A stretch of 8,450 nucleotides of DNA from a virus. Taxonomy: Duplodnaviria; Heunggongvirae; Uroviricota; Caudoviricetes. Both the position numbers and the translations under genes were made by a program. Under the pieces are notes generated by a model. That model saw only the letters and a program-made list of their open reading frames with translations, ran no database searches and was not told the origin of the DNA. Of this stretch, positions 1-8,450 are shown in pieces (positions within the stretch are counted from its first letter, which is position 1; each line of letters starts with the position of its first letter). Where the stretch lies: positions 1 through 8,450 of the IMG/VR virus record IMGVR_UViG_3300029467_000119; one strand, given 5' to 3'.

Positions 1-483
1 ATGACGAAGAAAAAAGCACATAAACTTGGTTCAGCGACCATCGCGCTTAACAAGCGCGCCCGTCACGAATACTTTATCGAAGAAGAGTTCGAAGCGGGAC
101 TTGCCCTGCAAGGCTGGGAGGTTAAATCCCTGCGCGCAGGAAAAGCCAATATCAGCGACAGCTACGTCCTTCTGCGTGACGGAGAGGCATTTCTGTTTGG
201 CGCTAACATCACGCCAATGGCCGTGGCCTCCACGCATGTGGTGTGCGATCCTACCCGTACCCGCAAGTTACTTCTCAACCAGCGCGAACTGGACTCATTG
301 TACGGTCGCGTCAATCGAGAAGGCTATACCGTAGTGGCGCTCTCCCTATACTGGAAAAATGCCTGGTGCAAAGTGAAAATCGGCGTCGCCAAAGGTAAGA
401 AACAGCACGATAAACGTTCAGACATCAAAGAACGCGAATGGCAGGTGGATAAAGCGCGTATCATGAAAAACGCCCACCGTTAA
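1..483 (+). CDS. smpB: SsrA-binding protein SmpB (trans-translation)
   Basis: 160-aa ORF from ATG at 1 to TAA at 481-483. The translation (MTKKKAHK...[36 protein letters not shown]...) is recognised as enterobacterial SmpB, and it sits immediately upstream of ssrA as in the conserved smpB-ssrA arrangement. Confidence 0.97.
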
Positions 484-674
484 ACCTGTAGTCCAATTAT
501 TGACCAGTTCCTCACCGCGCCTCCCTCTCCGGCGGCGCGAATGAACATCTTATTGGCTATCACATCCGACACAAATGTTGCCATCCCATTGCTTAATCGA
601 ATAAAAATCAGGCTACATGGGTGCTAAATCTTTAATGATAACGCCATTGAGGCTGGTCATGGCGCTCATAAATC

Positions 675-691
675 TGGTATACTTACCGTTA
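675..691 (+). promoter_or_regulatory. Candidate ssrA promoter: extended -10 element TGgTATACT (675..683), predicted precursor start about 7 nt before the mature 5' end
   Basis: TG at 675-676, one base, then TATACT at 678-683, positioned 15-20 nt upstream of the mature tmRNA 5' end at 698. No good -35 hexamer at 17-bp spacing, which is consistent with an extended -10 promoter. Read by eye only. Confidence 0.45.
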
Positions 692-697
692 CACATT

Positions 698-1060
698 GGG
701 GCTGATTCTGGATTCGACGGGATTTGCGAAACCCAAGGTGCATGCCGAGGGGCGGTTGGCCTCGTAAAAAGCCGCAAAAAATAGTCGCAAACGACGAAAA
801 CTACGCTTTAGCAGCTTAATAACCTGCTTAGAGCCCTCTCTCCCTAGCCTCCGCTCTTAGGACGGGGATCAAGAGAGGTCAAACCCAAAAGAGATCGCGT
901 GGAAGCCCTGCCTGGGGTTGAAGCGTTAAAACTTAATCAGGCTAGTTTGTTAGTGGCGTGTCCGTCCGCAGCTGGCAAGCGAATGTAAAGACTGACTAAG
1001 CATGTAGTACCGAGGATGTAGGAATTTCGGACGCGGGTTCAACTCCCGCCAGCTCCACCA
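698..1060 (+). ncRNA. ssrA: tmRNA (SsrA, 10Sa RNA), complete 363 nt
   Basis: Begins GGGGCTGATTCTGGATTCGACGGG at 698 and ends GGTTCAACTCCCGCCAGCTCCACCA at 1060 (tRNA-Ala-like acceptor/T-arm with CCA). Contains the internal tag reading frame and matches the length of E. coli tmRNA. Confidence 0.97.
787..819 (+). other. tmRNA tag-peptide reading frame (resume codon GCA at 787; encodes ANDENYALAA; TAA at 817-819 followed by a second TAA at 820-822)
   Basis: GCA AAC GAC GAA AAC TAC GCT TTA GCA GCT TAA TAA read directly from the sequence. This is the canonical enterobacterial degradation tag. Confidence 0.92.
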
Positions 1061-1070
1061 AATAAATCAA

Positions 1071-1099
1071 GGGGTTACGTGAAAGCGTAGCCCCTTTTT
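1071..1099 (+). terminator. Intrinsic terminator downstream of ssrA
   Basis: Stem GGGGTTACG (1071-1079) pairs with CGTAGCCCC (1085-1093) with one G.U pair, loop TGAAA, followed by TTTTT (1095-1099). Confidence 0.6.
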
Positions 1100-1118
1100 C
1101 TTAGGTAGTGGCGGCAAA

Positions 1119-1157
1119 ATGGCGACAGACTTTTGCGTCCATCTTGCCTGTCGCCAT
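1119..1157. repeat. Perfect 10-bp inverted repeat ATGGCGACAG (1119-1128) / CTGTCGCCAT (1148-1157) with 19-bp spacer; candidate operator or RNA hairpin upstream of the 1184 ORF
   Basis: Read directly. Lies 26 nt upstream of the ATG at 1184. A direct repeat CCATCTTG occurs at 1139-1146 and 1154-1161. Confidence 0.4.
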
Positions 1158-1183
1158 CTTGAAATCATGCAAAGAGGTTTGAC

Positions 1184-1666
1184 ATGGAAGAACTTCACTT
1201 TGTTTACATCAATGCAAATGGTCGTATCGGTGTTCACTCAATACAGAGCATCAGTTATAGCGAAAATCACATACAGGGCATTTGTAAGAACACCGATCGA
1301 ATAAAAACCTTCCGAAAAGACCGCATTCTTAAACAATACGATTCACAAGAACAAGCCATTCAGGAATGCGCGTCATTCCTCCCCGAAAACTACTCACATC
1401 TCACTAAGCAGTCAGGTCCGAAAAAAAATACATTCGATGTGTGTTTCACCGGATTTAAGCAAGCAGATAAAGAAAGGTTGGTTGATAAGGCGAATGAACA
1501 AGGATTAACGGTAAGAACATCTGTAACCCAAAACCTTCAGATGCTCTGTTGCGGTTACAATGCAGGCCCATCAAAAGTATCGGCAGCCAGGATGAAAGGC
1601 ACTATCATCATAGATGAGCCTGGCTTTATACATTTTCTTGAAACGGGTGAGATCCCAGATGAATAA
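1184..1666 (+). CDS. Hypothetical 160-aa protein with WYL-like N-terminal half and BRCT-like C-terminal half (prophage cargo)
   Basis: ATG at 1184 preceded by AAGAGG (1172-1177); TAA at 1664-1666. Residues about 5-48 (FVYINANGRIGVHSIQSISYSENHIQGICKNTDRIKTFRKDRI) fit the WYL-domain pattern ending in R-x-F-R-x-D-R-I. Residues about 84-155 (VCFTGF...ERL...GLTV..SV.....LCCG...GPSK...A...GTIIIDE..F..L) fit a BRCT fold pattern. About 38% GC by hand count of one 60-nt line. Confidence 0.7.
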   Translation: MEELHFVYINANGRIGVHSIQSISYSENHIQGICKNTDRIKTFRKDRILKQYDSQEQAIQECASFLPENYSHLTKQSGPKKNTFDVCFTGFKQADKERLVDKANEQGLTVRTSVTQNLQMLCCGYNAGPSKVSAARMKGTIIIDEPGFIHFLETGEIPDE

Positions 1667-1694
1667 AAACCTGCCGTAGCAGGTTCTCTTTCTT
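1665..1694. terminator. Bidirectional intrinsic terminator shared by the convergent 1184 ORF (+) and ogr (-)
   Basis: Stem ACCTGC (1669-1674), loop CGTA, stem GCAGGT (1679-1684). Flanked by AAAAA (1665-1669), which gives a U-tract for the minus-strand transcript, and by TCTCTTTCTT (1685-1694) for the plus-strand transcript. Confidence 0.6.
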
Positions 1695-1911
1695 AAAAAT
1701 TCATATGGCCCTGACCACCTGGCAATGGATGTGGAGGGGCTGTGGCAATCACTGCAGGTGTCACAATAAACCGGACCACTGTTTCATGGGTAACAAAAGT
1801 GCTCCCGCAGTTAATATTTTGGCACTGGCAGTAACGCTCTTTGGTGCTTTCTGTTACTTGAAAACTGCTCCTTGTGTGCGCCGCATGACCACACTTTGGA
1901 CAATTCATCAT
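1693..1911 (-). CDS. ogr: Ogr/B-family zinc-finger late-gene transcription activator (72 aa)
   Basis: From the second in-frame ATG (1909-1911) the product is 72 aa, MMNCPKCGHAAHTRSS...KERYCQCQNINCGSTF..., with C-x2-C-x22-C-x4-C spacing (Cys 4, 7, 30, 35) typical of P2 Ogr and 186 B. The ORF track's longer 87-aa form begins 45 nt upstream at 1956. Confidence 0.88.
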   Translation of the reverse strand: MMNCPKCGHAAHTRSSFQVTESTKERYCQCQNINCGSTFVTHETVVRFIVTPAVIATAPPHPLPGGQGHMNF

Positions 1912-1979
1912 ATCCAGATCCCTACCTTTGCTATCAGAATCATTGCAATGATACACAAAATATCAATATTGAGAACCAT

Positions 1980-3080
1980 TTATTCCATTTCAAGATCACC
2001 AATTTTCACTTCAAGTTCAATACTGGTCGTAAAACCGTTATCCGGGCTGACGGTATGTGTCAGAGTCGTAATGGTCCATTCCGCATCATCTATTGGCTGT
2101 TTAAAGCCACTGACCTTCACAGGCATTTCCGTGTAGAGATCTGCCCGACCTTCCGCCAGTTGTAGCGAGAATGACGCAACACCGCGTTGCAGGCGTTCCC
2201 ACTGCATTTTCGCCGCTCGTTCGGCGTTGCTCCGGTTGGCATAAGTGCGATTAAGTACCAGCACGTTTTCATCCGTCCCCACCAGATAATCGCCCTGCTT
2301 CGCTTCCGGCTCTTTCTTCTGCTTCTTAGTTCTGCGCTTACGCTTCACCGTGGTGCTTTCTTTCTTCGCGGGTTCGCGGGTATGCAACCAGCTGGCAATG
2401 ACGCCCGTATAGGCTCCGCGATCTGCCAGGGTAAAGCGGTGACTGTCGCCGTCCTTACGCGTGATAGTGATCACCGGCAGTGGTTTACCGCTGGCGCTTT
2501 TGCCCTGTCCCTGCCGGATGAATAACAGATTGCCATTTTTCACCGACGCAATAGCACCGTACTGGCGCGCCAGTCGCATCAGAAAACTGCCGTCACTCTC
2601 ATTGGTCTGGTCTATATGTTCCACGGGTTTATCTGACAGGTCTTTACCCAATGCCATCTTCAGTTTGTGCCGTGCAGCTATTTCCTTCACCACTTCCCCA
2701 ACGGTGGTCTTGTGCCACGACTTTTCACGGCGGGTATTCAGCGTTTCACGAAAATCAGCACTTCGCGCCCGGATAGTCAGGCGGTCCGGTGCGCCAGTGT
2801 GTTCAATCTCGTCCACCGTGAATGCCCCTTTCGGGAAAAGCAGCTGCCCCTTCCAGCCCAGCGCCAGCGTAATAACCGCACCACGGCGCGGCAGCACGAT
2901 TTTTCCGTCGGCGTCGTCCAGCTCCAGATCAAGCTGGTCTGCTTCAAAGCCCCGATTGTCCGTCAGCGTCAAACTCATCAGGCGGTTATCCAGCACAGTG
3001 GTGATATCCCTGCCCTCAATACTGATGCTGAATGCGGGAGTTTTGTTGCCTTTGTTAAGCAGTTCAGAGCTGAAATTCAC
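1980..3080 (-). CDS. D: P2 gpD-like phage tail protein (366 aa)
   Basis: Long ORF whose ATG overlaps the stop of the upstream U gene in an ATGA arrangement at 3077-3080. Recognised as the gpD family by its position in the conserved T-U-D-ogr order and by overall sequence character. Confidence 0.88.
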   Translation of the reverse strand: MNFSSELLNKGNKTPAFSISIEGRDITTVLDNRLMSLTLTDNRGFEADQLDLELDDADGKIVLPRRGAVITLALGWKGQLLFPKGAFTVDEIEHTGAPDRLTIRARSADFRETLNTRREKSWHKTTVGEVVKEIAARHKLKMALGKDLSDKPVEHIDQTNESDGSFLMRLARQYGAIASVKNGNLLFIRQGQGKSASGKPLPVITITRKDGDSHRFTLADRGAYTGVIASWLHTREPAKKESTTVKRKRRTKKQKKEPEAKQGDYLVGTDENVLVLNRTYANRSNAERAAKMQWERLQRGVASFSLQLAEGRADLYTEMPVKVSGFKQPIDDAEWTITTLTHTVSPDNGFTTSIELEVKIGDLEME

Positions 3081-3562
3081 GACAGCAGCCCTCCCACCGT
3101 TTTACTGATATCGCTTAAGGCAGACGTTGCCGTGTCCTGCAGATTATTCAGTTGCGCACTGAGATCACCGAACATATCGGACAGGGATTCATCCACCCGT
3201 TTGAGCGACAGGGTGAACTCAATCCGGCGCGGCATACCGTCGCGGAAAAACTCCGTTTTAGTCTGATTCAGTCCCTCAATCACATACATGCCGTAAATCG
3301 TGCCGCTGCCTTCAATCAGGGGCCATGCTTTCCCCTGTTCTGCCATCTGCTCCAGTACCAGCAACGACAGCCTGCCGCCTGTTATCTCCGGCATAAGAAC
3401 ACCAGAAAGCGTCAGCATGTCGTTGTCCGGTCCCAGAAACTGCGTGGACGGACGTCGGTTGACCCGGCTGTTTGCCGCATGTCGCCAGCTGCGTTGATAC
3501 TGCAGTTCCTGATACGGCACAGTGCGCAGCATAAACACGTACAATCCCAGCACCATCATCAT
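3077..3562 (-). CDS. U: P2 gpU-like phage tail protein (161 aa)
   Basis: ORF MMMVLGLYVFMLRTVPYQELQYQRSWRHAANSRVNRRPST... of the size expected for gpU. Its start overlaps the gpT stop (3559-3562) and its stop overlaps the gpD start, indicating translational coupling within the late tail operon. Confidence 0.88.
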   Translation of the reverse strand: MMMVLGLYVFMLRTVPYQELQYQRSWRHAANSRVNRRPSTQFLGPDNDMLTLSGVLMPEITGGRLSLLVLEQMAEQGKAWPLIEGSGTIYGMYVIEGLNQTKTEFFRDGMPRRIEFTLSLKRVDESLSDMFGDLSAQLNNLQDTATSALSDISKTVGGLLS

Positions 3563-4944
3563 GCGTCGTATCCCCCCTGATCGCTGTAGTTACTCCTGGC
3601 TTTTGCCTTCAGCCTGCGTTCACGTTCATCAAGCTGGCGTGCCACCTCCCGCGCAATATCCTGCGCACTTTGTCCTGGCTGCGTCTGGATGATGATCTGC
3701 GTCGGTGCCTCAATCCGTTGAGCGGGCGGCACAGTGGCTGCACGACTCACCATCGCTTCGCCGCCTTTCGCGGGAAGTGCCAAAGGATGTAACGGCGGAA
3801 GCTCTGCAGGCGCGGCAGCAACGCCCATCATTCCGGCAACAACGGCAGCCAGTGCAGCTGTATTTCTCCGACTGGTCACGTTTGCCGGACCGTTGACAAT
3901 TTCAGGCCCGTTTTCACCGACAATGCCGAACTGCCCGCGCGGGATATAGCCGCCGCTGTCATACATCCCCGCAAAGCCATATCCCCATGACGGAAAACCA
4001 CCCGATGGCATCATCACTTTACCGTCTGCATTCACCGTCGCAGGTTGCTGACGCGTCACGCTTTCCGGCAGTTTCGCCTTTGCAGCCTCTTTACTGACAA
4101 TACCGAGTTTCTCCAGCAACCAGGAAACGCCGGATTTCAGGGAGTCCAACGGATGCATGACCATATTCAGCCCTTCCGCCAGTGCCTCCCCGAATCGTCG
4201 CCCCATTGCCGCTGCGCTCTGCAGTTCGGCAGAGGTCGACTTAACAGGCGTCAGCAGATCAGTAAACCAGCCCCACAACGCCTGTACTTTGTCGCCAATC
4301 CACTGGAACACGGGCTTAAGCGGTTCGAATGCAGCACTGATGGGACCTGCCGCCGCTTTGAATCCTTCCACCACGCCACCGAGAAATGCGGTGATGGGTT
4401 GCCAGTATTTCCAGACAACCAGCGCCACGCCCGCCAGTGCAGTAACCACAAGACCTATCGGACTGAGCAGAGCACCTAACAGACCAGATACGGCATACAG
4501 GGCAACGCGCAGCATCGCCAGCGGACCGGATGCCAGCACACGCAGCACCGCGCCTGCGGCAGCCAGTCCACCGCGTAGTGCTGCCAGTGGATTCATAAAC
4601 ATCACAGCAACCGCACGTAAACCGGATAATCCAGACCGCAACAGTGCAACCGGCACACCTGCTACAGTTTTCAGGACATTCCCCGTCAGTGATGCGGTGC
4701 GGCGCAAAGACGACAACGGCGCAGTAAGTAAACCCGCTGCGTTGCCCGATGAAGCAAGCCCGCGTCGCAGCAGTGCCAGTGGAGCGCCAGCTAACCAGGA
4801 CAACGCGCTGCTGGTTCGTGTTACTGCTGCCGTAACGGAAGGTAACGTTTTGATACCCAGCACAGAGAATCCCAGACGGATGACTGCCAGCGGCCCCAGC
4901 ACTGCAGCCAGCGCCACCGCTAAGGTGCCGAGGCCTACGGTACC
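3559..4944 (-). pseudogene. T: Tail tape-measure protein gpT, 5'-truncated (C-terminal ~461 codons only)
   Basis: Ala/Gly/Leu-rich open frame typical of tape-measure proteins, ending ...ERERRLKAKARSNYSDQGGYDA. The frame is open from the stop at 3559-3561 up to position 4944 and is closed by an in-frame stop at 4945-4947. No ATG is present; the ORF track used GTG at 4915-4917. The length is roughly half that expected for P2-family gpT, recalled as about 800 aa. GC about 75% by hand count of one 60-nt line. Confidence 0.8.
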
Positions 4945-5201
4945 TCATTAATCGGTACACATGGCAGGCAGTGAATCTGTGCCAGAAAACCATCTATCAG
5001 CGTTGAATCTTCAGTCAGATCGGTAAGCAGCCAGATTTCTGGCGCATTGAGCTGATGCGGTTGATCTGGGTTGAGTTTGTTTCGCAGAGTCTGGACATTT
5101 ATTCCTGCACGTTCTGCCAGCTTCGCCATATTGTGACGTAGGGCAAAAGCTCTACAGGCTTCATCAAAATGCGGATGTTTGGAAATCTTATAATCAAACA
5201 T
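4935..5201 (-). CDS. cII: 186-type CII-family regulator, probable N-terminal fragment (88 aa, HTH retained), 3'-truncated at the deletion junction
   Basis: ATG at 5199-5201 preceded by AAGGGGG. The product MFDYKISKHPHFDEACRAFALRHNMAKLAERAGINVQTLRNKLNP... matches the N-terminal half of phage regulatory CII-family proteins, which I recall as about 170 aa. The ORF ends ...PINEVP* exactly where the gpT frame begins. Downstream of apl, as in phage 186. Confidence 0.65.
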   Translation of the reverse strand: MFDYKISKHPHFDEACRAFALRHNMAKLAERAGINVQTLRNKLNPDQPHQLNAPEIWLLTDLTEDSTLIDGFLAQIHCLPCVPINEVP

Positions 5202-5233
5202 GCGGCCCCCTTAGAAAGGTCTCATAATTGAAC

Positions 5234-5482
5234 TTAGTCACCAACGATGACATTAAAGTTGAAATTGGATTGGCCCATTTTTTTCCTGACTTGTTCCTTT
5301 TTGTACTCAAGGTAACGTATACATACTCTGTCTTTCGATTTTTCCTTTTTTTCCAAAAACTTAGCAAGTTTACCATTGTGAATCATTTGATATACCGAAC
5401 CACGAGATCGGCCTTCCCATTCCGCGAACTCTGCAGGGGTCGCCATCACTTTTGGTACACGAATTGAAATGTCGTTGCTCAT
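5234..5482 (-). CDS. Apl/Cox-like excisionase and transcriptional regulator (82 aa)
   Basis: Small ORF transcribed divergently from the CI gene, the position of apl in 186 and cox in P2. The segment TPAEFAEWEGRSRGSVYQMIHNGKLA resembles the Cox DNA-binding region. ATG at 5480-5482, TAA at 5234-5236. Confidence 0.7.
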   Translation of the reverse strand: MSNDISIRVPKVMATPAEFAEWEGRSRGSVYQMIHNGKLAKFLEKKEKSKDRVCIRYLEYKKEQVRKKMGQSNFNFNVIVGD

Positions 5483-5603
5483 AGTGCAGTATCTCTTACT
5501 TTGTGTGCGTTTTAGTTCGTTTTAGCTCGTCTCTTAAAATCTCACATCAAGAGACATGAAGACATTACGATCTTGATTCAAGATTGTCAAATGGAGATTA
5601 CCA
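5483..5603. promoter_or_regulatory. Divergent lysis/lysogeny switch region between apl and CI (presumed pR/pL and operators)
   Basis: 121-bp intergenic region containing a tandem 10-bp repeat TTTAGTTCGT/TTTAGCTCGT (5511-5530), direct GACAT repeats (5553-5557 and 5561-5565) and a 15-bp palindrome ATCTTGATTCAAGAT (5570-5584) about 20 bp upstream of the CI start codon. Exact promoter hexamers were not confidently assigned. Confidence 0.5.
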
Positions 5604-6236
5604 ATGTTAAACATCAGAATGGGTTCCGATACGGGAGGTAAGGCAGCTATTGAGAGGCTGCTTGAGGCTTATGGATTCACAACTAAGCAGGCATTAAGCG
5701 AGCATCTGAATGTCTCAAAAAGCACTATGGCAAACAGAGTGTTACGTGATAGCTTTCCTGCTGACTGGATAATTCAGTGCGCACTAGAAACTGGTGTTTC
5801 GTTGCTTTGGTTAGCAACAGGACAGGGAAGCATGAAAGAAGAATGTGAGCCTGAAAAAAGTTCTCATAATGAGAACAAACTAGCGATTAGACCGTTATCC
5901 AAACTCGTAACTCCATCTATTCCTAAAGGAACCTTGGAGAATGGAAAACTCCGTATTGATGAAAAGATTTTTCTAGACCACAGCATATTACCTGCACATT
6001 ATGAAGAATCGATGTTCTTAGAAACCCCTACTGATTGTTATCTCATCGATAAATCAGTTAAACAAGTCAGCAATGGATTCTGGCTTATCAATATTGATGG
6101 AATGATTATTATTGCAAAAATCATGCGGATTCCCGGCAATAAGATTGTAGTAAATCAAGATGAAGCGTCTTTCGAGTGCTCTGCTGATGATGTGGAAGTT
6201 ATTGGGCGCGCAGTCAAAGTAATAAAGAGTATCTAA
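5604..6236 (+). CDS. cI: Phage 186-type CI immunity repressor (210 aa)
   Basis: ATG at 5604 with GGAGA 5 nt upstream. The N-terminal motif TKQALSEHLNVSKSTMANRVLRDSFPADWIIQCALETGVSLLWLATGQG is characteristic of the phage CI-repressor HTH domain family. The stop at 6234-6236 is followed 2 nt later by the int start, giving a CI-int operon as in 186. Confidence 0.85.
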   Translation: MLNIRMGSDTGGKAAIERLLEAYGFTTKQALSEHLNVSKSTMANRVLRDSFPADWIIQCALETGVSLLWLATGQGSMKEECEPEKSSHNENKLAIRPLSKLVTPSIPKGTLENGKLRIDEKIFLDHSILPAHYEESMFLETPTDCYLIDKSVKQVSNGFWLINIDGMIIIAKIMRIPGNKIVVNQDEASFECSADDVEVIGRAVKVIKSI

Positions 6237-6238
6237 AC

Positions 6239-7255
6239 ATGACTGTCAGAAAACAGCCAAACGGTAAATGGTTGTGTGAGTGCTATCCCAATGGACGCAA
6301 TGGCAAACGCGTACGTAAGCAATTTGCTACGAAAGGCGAAGCCATTGCGTTTGAAAGCTTCACTATGGAAGAGGTGAACAAAAAACCGTGGTTAGGTGAA
6401 AAGGATGATCGGCGGCACCTGTCAGAATTAATTGAGCTGTGGTATTCCCTGTATGGTCGAACTCTCGCTGACCCCAAGCGTTTAATGGCGAAATTAAAAA
6501 TCATTTGTGGTGGACTTGGTGATCCCATAGCCTCTGAATTGACAGCAGGTGATTTCACTAAGTATCGGGAAGCGCGACTAAAAGGTGACGTTAAAAACAT
6601 TGATGGTGTGTTTATGTCGCCGGTTAAGCCTCGAACAGTAAACCTTGAACAACGCAATCTATCATCAGTTTTTGGAACTTTAAAAAAATTAGGCCACTGG
6701 TCCGCCCCCAACCCACTCGCCGGTCTACCAACATTTAAAATTGCAGAGGGCGAACTGGCATTTCTGACACAGGAAGAAATAAAACGCTTGCTGAATGCCT
6801 GTGCTGATTCTCAAAATCCCAGCCTACTTTTGATTGCAAAAATATGCTTAGCCACAGGCGCGCGCTGGAGTGAAGCCGAAAACCTGCAGGGTCATCAGTT
6901 ATCAAAATACCGTATAACTTATACCAAGACAAAGGGCAAGAAAAACCGAACCGTACCTATTTCTCAGGAACTGTACAACGAACTCCCCAAAAAACGAGGG
7001 AAGTTATTCACACCATGCAGAAAAGCCTTTGAACGGGCGGTAAAACGGGCCGGTATCGAACTACCGGAAGGCCAATGCACCCACGTCCTGCGCCATACAT
7101 TTGCCAGCCACTTTATGATGAATGGCGGAAACATACTGGTGCTGCGCGATATTCTAGGACATGCGGATATAAAAATGACGATGATCTACGCTCATTTTTC
7201 TCCAGATCATTTAGAAGACGCGGTGACTAAAAATCCACTAAATTTATTAAAGTGA
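6239..7255 (+). CDS. int: P2-type tyrosine integrase (338 aa)
   Basis: N-terminus ...NGKRVRKQFATKGEAIAFE... and a C-terminal catalytic region with GARWSE (Arg), HVLRHTF (His-x-x-Arg) and MIYAHF (Tyr), typical of P2/186 integrases. Confidence 0.95.
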   Translation: MTVRKQPNGKWLCECYPNGRNGKRVRKQFATKGEAIAFESFTMEEVNKKPWLGEKDDRRHLSELIELWYSLYGRTLADPKRLMAKLKIICGGLGDPIASELTAGDFTKYREARLKGDVKNIDGVFMSPVKPRTVNLEQRNLSSVFGTLKKLGHWSAPNPLAGLPTFKIAEGELAFLTQEEIKRLLNACADSQNPSLLLIAKICLATGARWSEAENLQGHQLSKYRITYTKTKGKKNRTVPISQELYNELPKKRGKLFTPCRKAFERAVKRAGIELPEGQCTHVLRHTFASHFMMNGGNILVLRDILGHADIKMTMIYAHFSPDHLEDAVTKNPLNLLK

Positions 7256-7262
7256 GAAAAGA

Positions 7263-8450
7263 ATGCAACAGGATAGAGATGTTGAAACTCAGTTAAATAT
7301 GATGCTGAATGAGTTGTATAGTAATGAGGATTTAATGCCACCTTTTAAACCTAAAGGTGACATCGTTTCTGATTTTAACTCTCGCTGCAATGAATACCTT
7401 AATTTTTTAAATGAATTTAAAATTAAAAACAAAACCAGGCTTAATATTGATCTGCTAATAAAGCGAGTATTAAAAATACAACTAGGAATAACCGAGAGCC
7501 TTCAAGAGTTTTTAGCGGGTGACATCAAAGAGGCATATGATATTTTCGATGACACTTTTTCAGACAATCTTATTAATAAGCATATTCAAAGAATCACAAT
7601 CCCCCTTAAGGAAATATGTAATTATGATCAACCACTCTATAGAGTACGCAAATCAGACAAGCCATTACTTAACAGGGAAGATATTTTCCATATACCATTT
7701 TCCTGCCGACACCTTGTCAGTGCTCAACGTTACTCAGTAGCGGGACTCCCCTGTTTATATCTAGGTTCATCTCTATATGTATGCTGGCAAGAAATGGACA
7801 AACCAGATTTTGATAAACTATATATATCCTCATTCATATCACAAGATACTAAATCTAAAATCCTTAACTTTGTTCCACAACTGAAAACCTCAATCAATAC
7901 TAAAGAATGGAGCAGCGAAGAGTTAAGAACAAATAATTATATCAAAGCTTCGTATTTGGTTCTCTGGCCCTTAATTTTCTCATGTAGCTATATAAAAACA
8001 CATGAAAACTCAAGTTTTACGCAAGAATATATAATACCTAATTTACTCATGCAGTGGATAAGCACACGGGGTCAATCTCCAATATCTGGCATAGCCTATT
8101 CATCAACGAAAATGAAAAAAAGTCTAGGTTCAAAACTTTCAATAAATGTTGTATTACCCCCCAAAGCCACATATAGACAAACGACTCAAAAAGATTTTTG
8201 CCCAAGGTTGTCATCATTATTTGATTTTACTCCACCTGTTTCATGGCAGGTTTTAAAAACATTAGAGTATCAGAATGCAATCCCTAAAACATCTGAGCAG
8301 GGGAAAGCTATCAGATTTCTTGCTCGAAAAGAAAGGCTATCTGGCATTACTGATTTTGATAGTGACATAATCAGACTTTACCCATTAACTGACTTTTATA
8401 AACTGGAAGTTTGTATGGATCGCTTATTTGATTATTCACCTATTAGATAG
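7263..8450 (+). CDS. Hypothetical 395-aa protein with a central RES-like (NAD+-targeting toxin-type) domain; AT-rich prophage cargo
   Basis: ATG at 7263, 7 nt after the int stop, with a purine-rich GAGAAAAG upstream; TAG at 8448-8450. About 33% GC by hand count of two 60-nt lines. Residues 155-177 (QRYSVAGLPCLYLGSSLYVCWQE) and 274-299 (ISGIAYSSTKMKKSLGSKLSINVVLP) resemble the conserved Arg, Glu and Ser motifs of RES domains: Arg156 codon 7728-7730, Glu177 codon 7791-7793, Ser280 codon 8100-8102. The flanking N-terminal (~115 aa) and C-terminal (~95 aa) regions are unassigned. Confidence 0.8.
   Translation: MQQDRDVETQLNMMLNELYSNEDLMPPFKPKGDIVSDFNSRCNEYLNFLNEFKIKNKTRLNIDLLIKRVLKIQLGITESLQEFLAGDIKEAYDIFDDTFSDNLINKHIQRITIPLKEICNYDQPLYRVRKSDKPLLNREDIFHIPFSCRHLVSAQRYSVAGLPCLYLGSSLYVCWQEMDKPDFDKLYISSFISQDTKSKILNFVPQLKTSINTKEWSSEELRTNNYIKASYLVLWPLIFSCSYIKTHENSSFTQEYIIPNLLMQWISTRGQSPISGIAYSSTKMKKSLGSKLSINVVLPPKATYRQTTQKDFCPRLSSLFDFTPPVSWQVLKTLEYQNAIPKTSEQGKAIRFLARKERLSGITDFDSDIIRLYPLTDFYKLEVCMDRLFDYSPIR

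Follow-up and report, generated by a model that had tools for sequence, protein, structure and literature searches.

A RES-like gene behind int as the probable third cistron of the lysogenic operon in a deleted Fels-2/186-type prophage

The last gene of an 8,450-nucleotide (nt) stretch of caudoviral DNA (IMG/VR record IMGVR_UViG_3300029467_000119, positions 1 to 8,450; this whole stretch is called the window) raises two questions: whether it is expressed together with the repressor and integrase genes that precede it, and what its product could do for a lysogen. An earlier note on this DNA had proposed that the gene, referred to here as the cargo gene, encodes a RES-like protein and is co-transcribed with cI and int from the lysogenic promoter. 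The analyses presented below support this co-transcription as far as sequence can: the spacing of the genes is conserved, no internal terminator was found, int contains no promoter-like site and coliphage 186 has the same design. Membership of the cargo gene in the cI-int lysogenic operon is considered likely. The combined reading, in which the third cistron of this operon would encode an anti-phage effector directed at nicotinamide adenine dinucleotide (NAD+), is given a probability of about 0.6. The features on which the operon question depends are as follows.

5234-5482, minus strand: apl/cox-like excisionase and repressor gene, divergent from cI (phrog_6912, E-value (E) 4e-33; phrog_575, E 1e-23).
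5464-5492, plus strand: probable lysogenic promoter pL (-35 TTGAAA at 5464-5469, 17-nt spacer, -10 CAGTAT at 5487-5492), overlapping the start of apl.
5583-5610, minus strand: candidate lytic promoter pR (TTAACA-16-GACAAT), scored as promoter-like by the tool scan, convergent with pL and expected to drive apl; its position is approximate.
5604-6236, plus strand: cI immunity repressor gene, first gene of the lysogenic operon (Pfam Phage_CI_repr, E 1.5e-30; Phage_CI_C, E 2.1e-30).
6239-7255, plus strand: int, tyrosine integrase gene (Pfam Int_N, E 1.4e-28; Phage_integrase, E 3.2e-25).
7253-7265, plus strand: int stop codon, spacer and cargo ATG, with a weak GAG Shine-Dalgarno-like element overlapping the int stop.
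7263-8450, plus strand: cargo gene of 395 codons, whose stop codon is the final triplet of the window.

The two junctions were read directly from the sequence. The cI stop codon (TAA, 6234-6236) is separated from the int ATG (6239) by 2 nt (AC), and the int stop codon (TGA, 7253-7255) from the cargo ATG (7263) by 7 nt (GAAAAGA), so that both gaps are as the earlier note had given them. An in-frame stop codon located just upstream of the cargo ATG (equivalent to 9986-9988 in prophage locus L003) leaves no room for an earlier start, and the alignments with homologues begin at residue 1. A tool scan of the plus strand from 5100 to 8450 gave no terminator-like site, and a ViennaRNA scan of 5481-8450 for hairpins followed by a T-tract detected nothing between cI and the cargo start and only weak intragenic hairpins. 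Moreover, the junction region (7190-7330) folded like shuffled controls (z = -0.02). The claim that no hairpin/T-tract terminator separates the three genes was thus upheld by two scans and a shuffle-controlled fold. As for structured RNAs or small RNAs, Rfam matched only the transfer-messenger RNA (tmRNA) in this region. A possible attenuator on the plus strand at 7335-7363, 72 nt inside the cargo reading frame, was also considered. Its 7-bp hairpin (CACCTTT/AAAGGTG, -8.6 kcal/mol) is too weak and has no adjacent T run, T-rich sequence occurring only at a distance, and this candidate was rejected.

In an alignment with phage 186, the probable pL falls in the same columns as the annotated one (TTGCGA-17-CATGAT), and the Cartapus phage copy is identical to that of the window. 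It was assigned from this homology alone and scores under the cut-off (9/12) of a generic promoter scan. The face-to-face arrangement of the candidate pR and the probable pL also agrees with the 186 annotation by sequence match. The promoter interval proposed in the earlier note (5483..5603) has to be extended upstream, because it misses the -35 element of pL, the probable promoter beginning at 5464, inside apl.

A competing explanation is that the cargo gene is expressed independently of cI, from a promoter in the 3' part of int or in its own AT-rich sequence, or that it is silenced by H-NS or Rho; its tight spacing to int would then be a by-product of recombination at the int stop codon. Several promoter-like matches are indeed found inside the cargo gene, the guanine-plus-cytosine (GC) content of which is 34%, and weak 9/12 matches occur in 16 of 67 distinct int sequences of relatives (13 at about 165-190 nt and 3 at about 720-740 nt before the int stop). 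The matches at about 165-190 nt arise from conserved codons (FMMNGG) and are not conserved as a promoter, which argues against this explanation. So does the int gene of the window and of its closest relatives: no sigma-70-like promoter (at least 9/12) was detected in it or in the int-cargo gap.

In order to measure the junctions, 115 loci encoding relatives of the cargo protein were gathered and loci from earlier comparisons were added. A same-strand upstream int, 89-94% identical to that of the window, was present in 98 loci. The gap between int and the cargo gene was -17 to +23 nt in 51 of the 53 distinct junction sequences, over cargo identities that span 39-100%, and the gap between cI and int was always 1-3 nt across related loci. 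In many alleles the cargo start overlaps the int stop (gaps of -4, -8, -11 or -17 nt), as does orfY of phage SopEPhi, by 4 nt. The tight int-cargo spacing is more than chance. Both exceptions (L014; L053/L054) carry an extra gene for a 352-375 amino acid (aa) membrane protein between int and the RES-like gene. This extra gene (2810-3868 in L053; 2816-3943 in L014) encodes N-terminal transmembrane helices, and it starts 1 nt past the int stop or overlaps it by 4 nt.

The interval behind int is occupied differently in other phages. Klebsiella phage ST437-OXA245phi4.1 has an unrelated 516-aa open reading frame (ORF) there, overlapping int by 4 nt (L129, 3702-5252), and in Yersinia phage MLG42 (L130, 3527-3813) the slot is empty. 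Phages Cartapus and RE2010 share the order cI, int, 401-aa homologue, attachment site (attP), BRCT ORF, ogr, D, U and T. The DNA similarity between phages ends exactly at the int stop. Together, these observations indicate that the position right behind int is a cargo slot, whose occupants are consistently tied to the int cistron. The sharp end of similarity at the int stop is a point in favour of independent expression after recombination, whereas start codons overlapping the int stop are typical of coupled cistrons and count against it.

The end of the putative operon was then compared with the position of the attachment (att) site, for which three further features are needed.

698-1060: ssrA, the tmRNA gene (Rfam tmRNA, the sole Rfam match in the region).
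1016 to about 1061, plus strand: att core, formed by the 3' end of ssrA; the other copy begins 125 nt past the cargo stop, a short way beyond the end of the window.
1069-1102, plus strand: phage-supplied intrinsic terminator, a 12-bp stem followed by T5CTT, which ends ssrA in the lysogen.

Read from its sequence, the window represents the attR-side and attL-side ends of a deleted Fels-2/186-type (Peduoviridae) prophage in Salmonella ssrA. In ten loci with an identical cargo gene (L003-L012), an exact repeat of 38-49 nt (window 1016-1053/1064) begins 125 nt past the cargo stop, and the cargo gene is therefore the terminal gene of the prophage, between int and attL. The stretch from the cargo stop to the att core contains no terminator. 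In the prophages, 200-300 nt separate the cargo stop from the first strong terminator, a displaced one of the ssrA type (-12 to -22 kcal/mol). Its Cartapus counterpart, at 173 nt from the stop (-19.2 kcal/mol), has the sequence of window 1069-1102. In both the phage and the prophage forms, the first strong terminator is located beyond the att core. The phage brings the last 45 nt or so of ssrA together with the terminator at 1069-1102, and this terminator serves two transcription units depending on the integration state, namely ssrA in the lysogen and, across attP, cI-int-cargo in the circular phage.

Published expression data were available for related lysogens. In Escherichia coli LF82, a Cartapus lysogen, the log2 expression of cI was about 5.0 in overnight lysogeny broth (LB) and 8.0-9.3 in four other conditions, the corresponding values for int being about 3.5 and 5.7-6.4 (PMC9928086, S1 table); the two genes co-vary over the five conditions (PMC9928086). 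In Salmonella Typhimurium D23580, the repressor and integrase genes of the 186-like prophage BTP5 are transcribed in all conditions, at a low level (PMC7067206); SopEPhi is outside the coverage of the D23580 prophage transcriptome paper. The LF82 and BTP5 data support a cI-int unit that is active in lysogens, and by extension suggest that a third cistron may be expressed weakly in them.

Several observations weigh against placing the cargo gene in this unit or against its appreciable expression. In LF82, int is expressed 2-3 log2 units lower than cI (PMC9928086), so that genes further along may be expressed very weakly. The RES homologue of Cartapus, CARTA_33, is missing from the LF82 expression table (PMC9928086) and is not among the LF82 genes at least 5-fold above background. 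From the level of int and the unlisted CARTA_33, the lysogen probably expresses the cargo gene at a low level. A gene with 34% GC may also be subject to Rho-dependent termination or to silencing by H-NS. Finally, the operon layout varies: in Klebsiella sp. R390 (L019, 3200-6057) the homologue is located between cI and int, begins 9 nt past the cI stop and is followed by a strong hairpin + T6 terminator right before the int ATG. Placed between cI and this terminator, the L019 homologue could hardly be expressed except with cI, and in this respect the locus speaks for co-transcription. The 74-nt spacer of this locus also contains a promoter-like site (TTGACC-17-TTAAAT). The Cartapus homologue, unreported among the lysogen-expressed genes, has also been counted in favour of independent expression or silencing of the cargo gene; it is missing from the table, which is not the same as measured silent. 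Taking these points with the int and junction data above, independent expression or silencing is regarded as fairly unlikely.

If the cargo gene is expressed with the repressor, the nature of its product becomes the next question. The protein belongs to a family that comprises phrog_7835 (E 3e-151; no function given on PHROG), SopEPhi orfY and YopC of Bacillus phage SPbeta. At E of 0.001 or less, 311 homologues were collected, nearly all labelled 'hypothetical', and distant relatives (28-35% identity) were found in Aeromonas, Bacteroidales, Acidobacteriota, Paenibacillus and Clostridia as well as in SPbeta. Four kinds of region can be distinguished. The helical N-terminus (aa 1-120) is variable, as is an insert (aa 191-232) that interrupts the conserved RES-like core (aa 121-190 and 233-335), and the C-terminus is helical. 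Among enterobacterial alleles, mean identity is 80% in core residues 121-190 and 33-34% in the N-terminal 60 residues and the insert. The gene has a GC content of 34.0% (28.5% at third codon positions), compared with 44.9% for int and 54-59% for the tail genes. This composition, together with hypervariability beside a conserved int, bears out the designation of the gene as cargo.

An AlphaFold2 model built from 44 sequences (pLDDT 86, pTM 0.87) predicts a RES/ADP-ribosyltransferase-like fold, as in the RES toxins of toxin-antitoxin (TA) systems. R156 and E177 do not vary in either the 44 close or the 14 diverse sequences, and position 281 is always Ser in the close set and Ser or Thr in the diverse one. 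These conserved Arg, Glu and Ser residues occur in RES order and, judged by that order, may correspond to the catalytic residues. Pfam RES is matched weakly by 30 of the 44 close homologues (best E 0.015), and a Paenibacillus relative (L038, 3626-4939) passes its gathering score (31.9 versus 23.2 bits).

The functional half of the reading meets difficulties of its own. Pfam RES (PF08808) does not match the window protein even at E of 10 or less. No significant Foldseek match to the PDB and no PDB sequence match was obtained, the window protein has no PADLOC or NCBIfam match, and no antitoxin gene of the Xre/ParS/MbcA type adjoins the cargo gene in the window, the upstream gene being int. The term 'RES-like' is thus backed by fold and family and only partly borne out at the level of sequence, where the window protein stays below Pfam RES. 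Since it misses the Pfam threshold and has no adjoining antitoxin gene, it is not classed as a canonical RES toxin. From the model and the family evidence we place it in the RES superfamily, as a divergent and long member encoded by a single gene. A known defence system was ruled out by the lack of PADLOC and NCBIfam matches. A match to Pfam Plasmod_dom_1 at 7527-7616 (aa 89-118; 25.4 bits for a cut-off of 23.9) was rejected as a compositional artefact of an AT-rich stretch encoding many Asn, Ile and Lys residues. No paper on the function of orfY, YopC or Cartapus gp33, and no experimental study, was found in the literature searched.

The 395-codon frame is intact and near-identical to copies in complete prophages, and the idea of a decaying pseudogene was discarded. 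In more than 200 Salmonella contigs NCBI calls only the C-terminal 218 aa (P0029, from M178), likely a start-site miscall in an AT-rich gene, since these loci keep all 395 codons open (9470-10657 in L009-L012).

The fold shared with RES toxins of TA systems raises the possibility that the cargo protein is a TA or addiction toxin that stabilises the prophage and is neutralised by its own N-terminal domain or by another product of the operon. Firmicute relatives would agree with this: an 84-aa Xre-type helix-turn-helix (HTH) gene (HTH_3; L045, 3634-3888) lies 10 nt upstream of one RES-like gene, and an Xre-type HTH is fused to the N-terminus of another (L043, 3542-4786). These are the only relatives with an HTH_3 partner or fusion, the classic Xre-RES architecture. 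In L019 the HTH repressor gene cI takes the upstream place, at 9 nt, and the cargo gene has been kept intact in two deletion remnants, the window and L005. On the other side, the window has no antitoxin gene beside the cargo gene, and a hypervariable N-terminus and insert and the turnover of the slot are more in keeping with an arms race than with an addiction module. TA and defence roles can also coexist. A dedicated addiction function is held to be unlikely.

The position of cI in L019, compared with the Xre gene upstream in L045 and fused in L043, leads to a more specific variant in which the RES-like protein would be a toxin restrained by the lysogenic operon, with CI as its antitoxin or regulator. 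This variant is considered highly improbable. If it were true, loss or inactivation of the repressor would unleash NAD+-directed toxicity, and the immunity operon would contain a repressor-coupled addiction or exclusion device.

The remaining features of the window concern the history of the element.

1-483: smpB, at the start of the window.
1184-1666, plus strand: BRCT/NAD-ligase-like ORF of 160 aa (phrog_2561), adjoining the other att end.
Minus strand, all four genes: ogr, gpD, gpU and the C-terminal half of the tape-measure gene T (T', 3559-4917).
4935-5201, minus strand: cII fragment, 88 of about 169 codons (Pfam Phage_CP76, match confined to the first 80 of 146 positions).

Escherichia phage Cartapus matches window 1016-4695 at 99.8% identity, and window 4941-8450 shares 99.7-99.9% DNA identity with the intact prophages L003-L012, which contain a full-length cII (169 aa) and with which homology begins at 4941. 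These two matches point to an internal deletion with one end within cII and the other within T. The junction, at 4918-4940, fuses the first 87 or so codons of cII to the C-terminal half of T. In the deleted form apl, cII', T', U, D and ogr are all on the minus strand, downstream of the pR-like promoter. A protein identical to the 395-aa product is encoded in more than 100 public assemblies, mostly in complete Fels-2/186-type prophages; in L005 the gene is located within a remnant resembling that of the window, produced by a different deletion of the same prophage type. The fljAB/hin and iro genes flank the identical-protein loci and the names on the identical proteins are Salmonella enterica, both of which point to this host.

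Close to the other att end, the 1184-1666 ORF has a Cartapus homologue ('putative exonuclease', LF82_783) that is the top-expressed Cartapus gene in the LF82 lysogen, at 15 times background. It gives a weak PADLOC match to PDC-S48 (E 1.6e-7) and looks like a genuine lysogen-expressed accessory gene.

The truncation of cII matters for transcription, because the CII-activated establishment promoter pE could not be switched on by the element of the window and pL alone is left. We propose that transcription would start at pL (about 5464-5492) and run through cI, int and the cargo gene as one mRNA, meeting no terminator. In intact phages the CII-activated pE would also transcribe the three genes; in the remnant only pL would do so. 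Transcription would stop beyond the att core, at the phage's own ssrA-type terminator in the circular form and at the displaced host-side terminator in the prophage. Translation of the cargo gene is probably coupled to termination at the int stop. Its product would be present in lysogens at a low, repressor-linked level, with a burst at establishment.

As an alternative to a role in the lysogen, the cargo protein might serve the phage during establishment of lysogeny or integration, when it would be produced from pE together with Int, as a counter-defence, host takeover or recombination accessory factor. The gene shares its operon with int, which is needed mainly at establishment, it adjoins attP, and phages target NAD+/ADP-ribose-based immunity (PMC9503650). 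The slot is empty in Yersinia phage MLG42 or occupied by unrelated genes in other relatives, so the cargo gene is not a core integration function, and it persists in a remnant no longer able to establish or replicate. A function confined to establishment is judged quite improbable.

The preferred reading remains that of a lysogen-expressed third cistron encoding a RES-domain enzyme of the ADP-ribosyltransferase fold, in which a catalytic-type core would be kept while the N-terminal and insert regions vary fast and might act as sensor or regulatory surfaces. The most likely role for such an enzyme would be that of an NAD+-directed prophage effector protecting the lysogen from other phages, in the style of abortive infection or exclusion. 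Taken separately, this anti-phage role is a tentative proposal, somewhat short of even odds.

If the cargo gene is expressed with the repressor, every lysogen carrying a prophage of this group, which is widespread in Salmonella, E. coli, Klebsiella and Enterobacter, defective remnants included, would make a low level of a RES-type enzyme. As a single gene it would offer a simple candidate for a new anti-phage or addiction function directed at NAD+, and the int-att slot would obtain its expression by riding the immunity operon instead of using its own promoter. The family is large and hypervariable, does not figure among catalogued defence systems and extends to relatives in Firmicutes, Bacteroidota and Acidobacteriota. 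The finding is useful as annotation and flags a candidate defence or toxin gene.

Much of this has precedents, and the novelty is modest. Already known are orfY of SopEPhi ('similar to YopC'), the 'putative RES protein' of Cartapus, the three-gene operon of 186 and the int-att hotspot. SopEPhi orfY, RE2010 gp01 and Cartapus gp33 are homologues of the window protein (43-46% identity, E 1e-87 to 5e-118). In these phages (Felsduovirus/Elveevirus, integrated in ssrA) they occupy the same slot after int and before attP, the allele of the window being strongly diverged. SPbeta YopC, annotated as RES domain-containing, is a homologue over residues 25-333 (30% identity, E 3e-33), in a different type of phage and a different genomic context. 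Compared with the RES toxins of type II TA systems (MbcT, ParT, Res of Xre-RES, NatT), the window protein has about twice their length and carries additional helical regions at both termini, and it differs in falling under the Pfam threshold and in having the integrase gene upstream and no adjoining antitoxin gene.

The int-att interval of P2-like phages has been described as a minor defence hotspot (PMC13586616). As in the defence hotspots of these phages, that minor one included (PMC9122126; PMC13586616), the window shows a variable slot with conserved flanks and turnover, whereas its gene matches no catalogued defence system. Compared with a moron, the cargo gene has the deviant base composition (34.0% GC) but no promoter of its own, given the 7-nt gap and the lack of one in int, and no terminator of its own before the att core, L019 excepted.

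The closest parallel is the pL/pE-cI-int-orf69-attP-terminator arrangement of coliphage 186. In 186, cI and int lie on one strand with a gap of 0-3 nt, as in the window, and are driven by pL and the CII-activated pE. There, pL lies across the start of the divergent apl gene and faces pR, and by sequence a probable pL and a candidate pR are placed likewise in the window. Orf69 lies between int and attP after a 14-nt gap, the place taken by the cargo gene in the window, and a 'predicted terminator of lysogenic operon' is annotated beyond attP, as it would be in elements of the window type. The two differ in the third ORF, an unrelated 83-aa protein in 186 and a 395-aa RES-like protein in the window, in the attachment site, which is a tRNA-Ile gene in 186 and ssrA for the window, and in the loss of cII and of pE activation from the window. 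On every point that can be read from the sequence the architecture mirrors that of 186, and the proposed operon membership of the cargo gene mostly confirms what the biology of phage 186 predicts.

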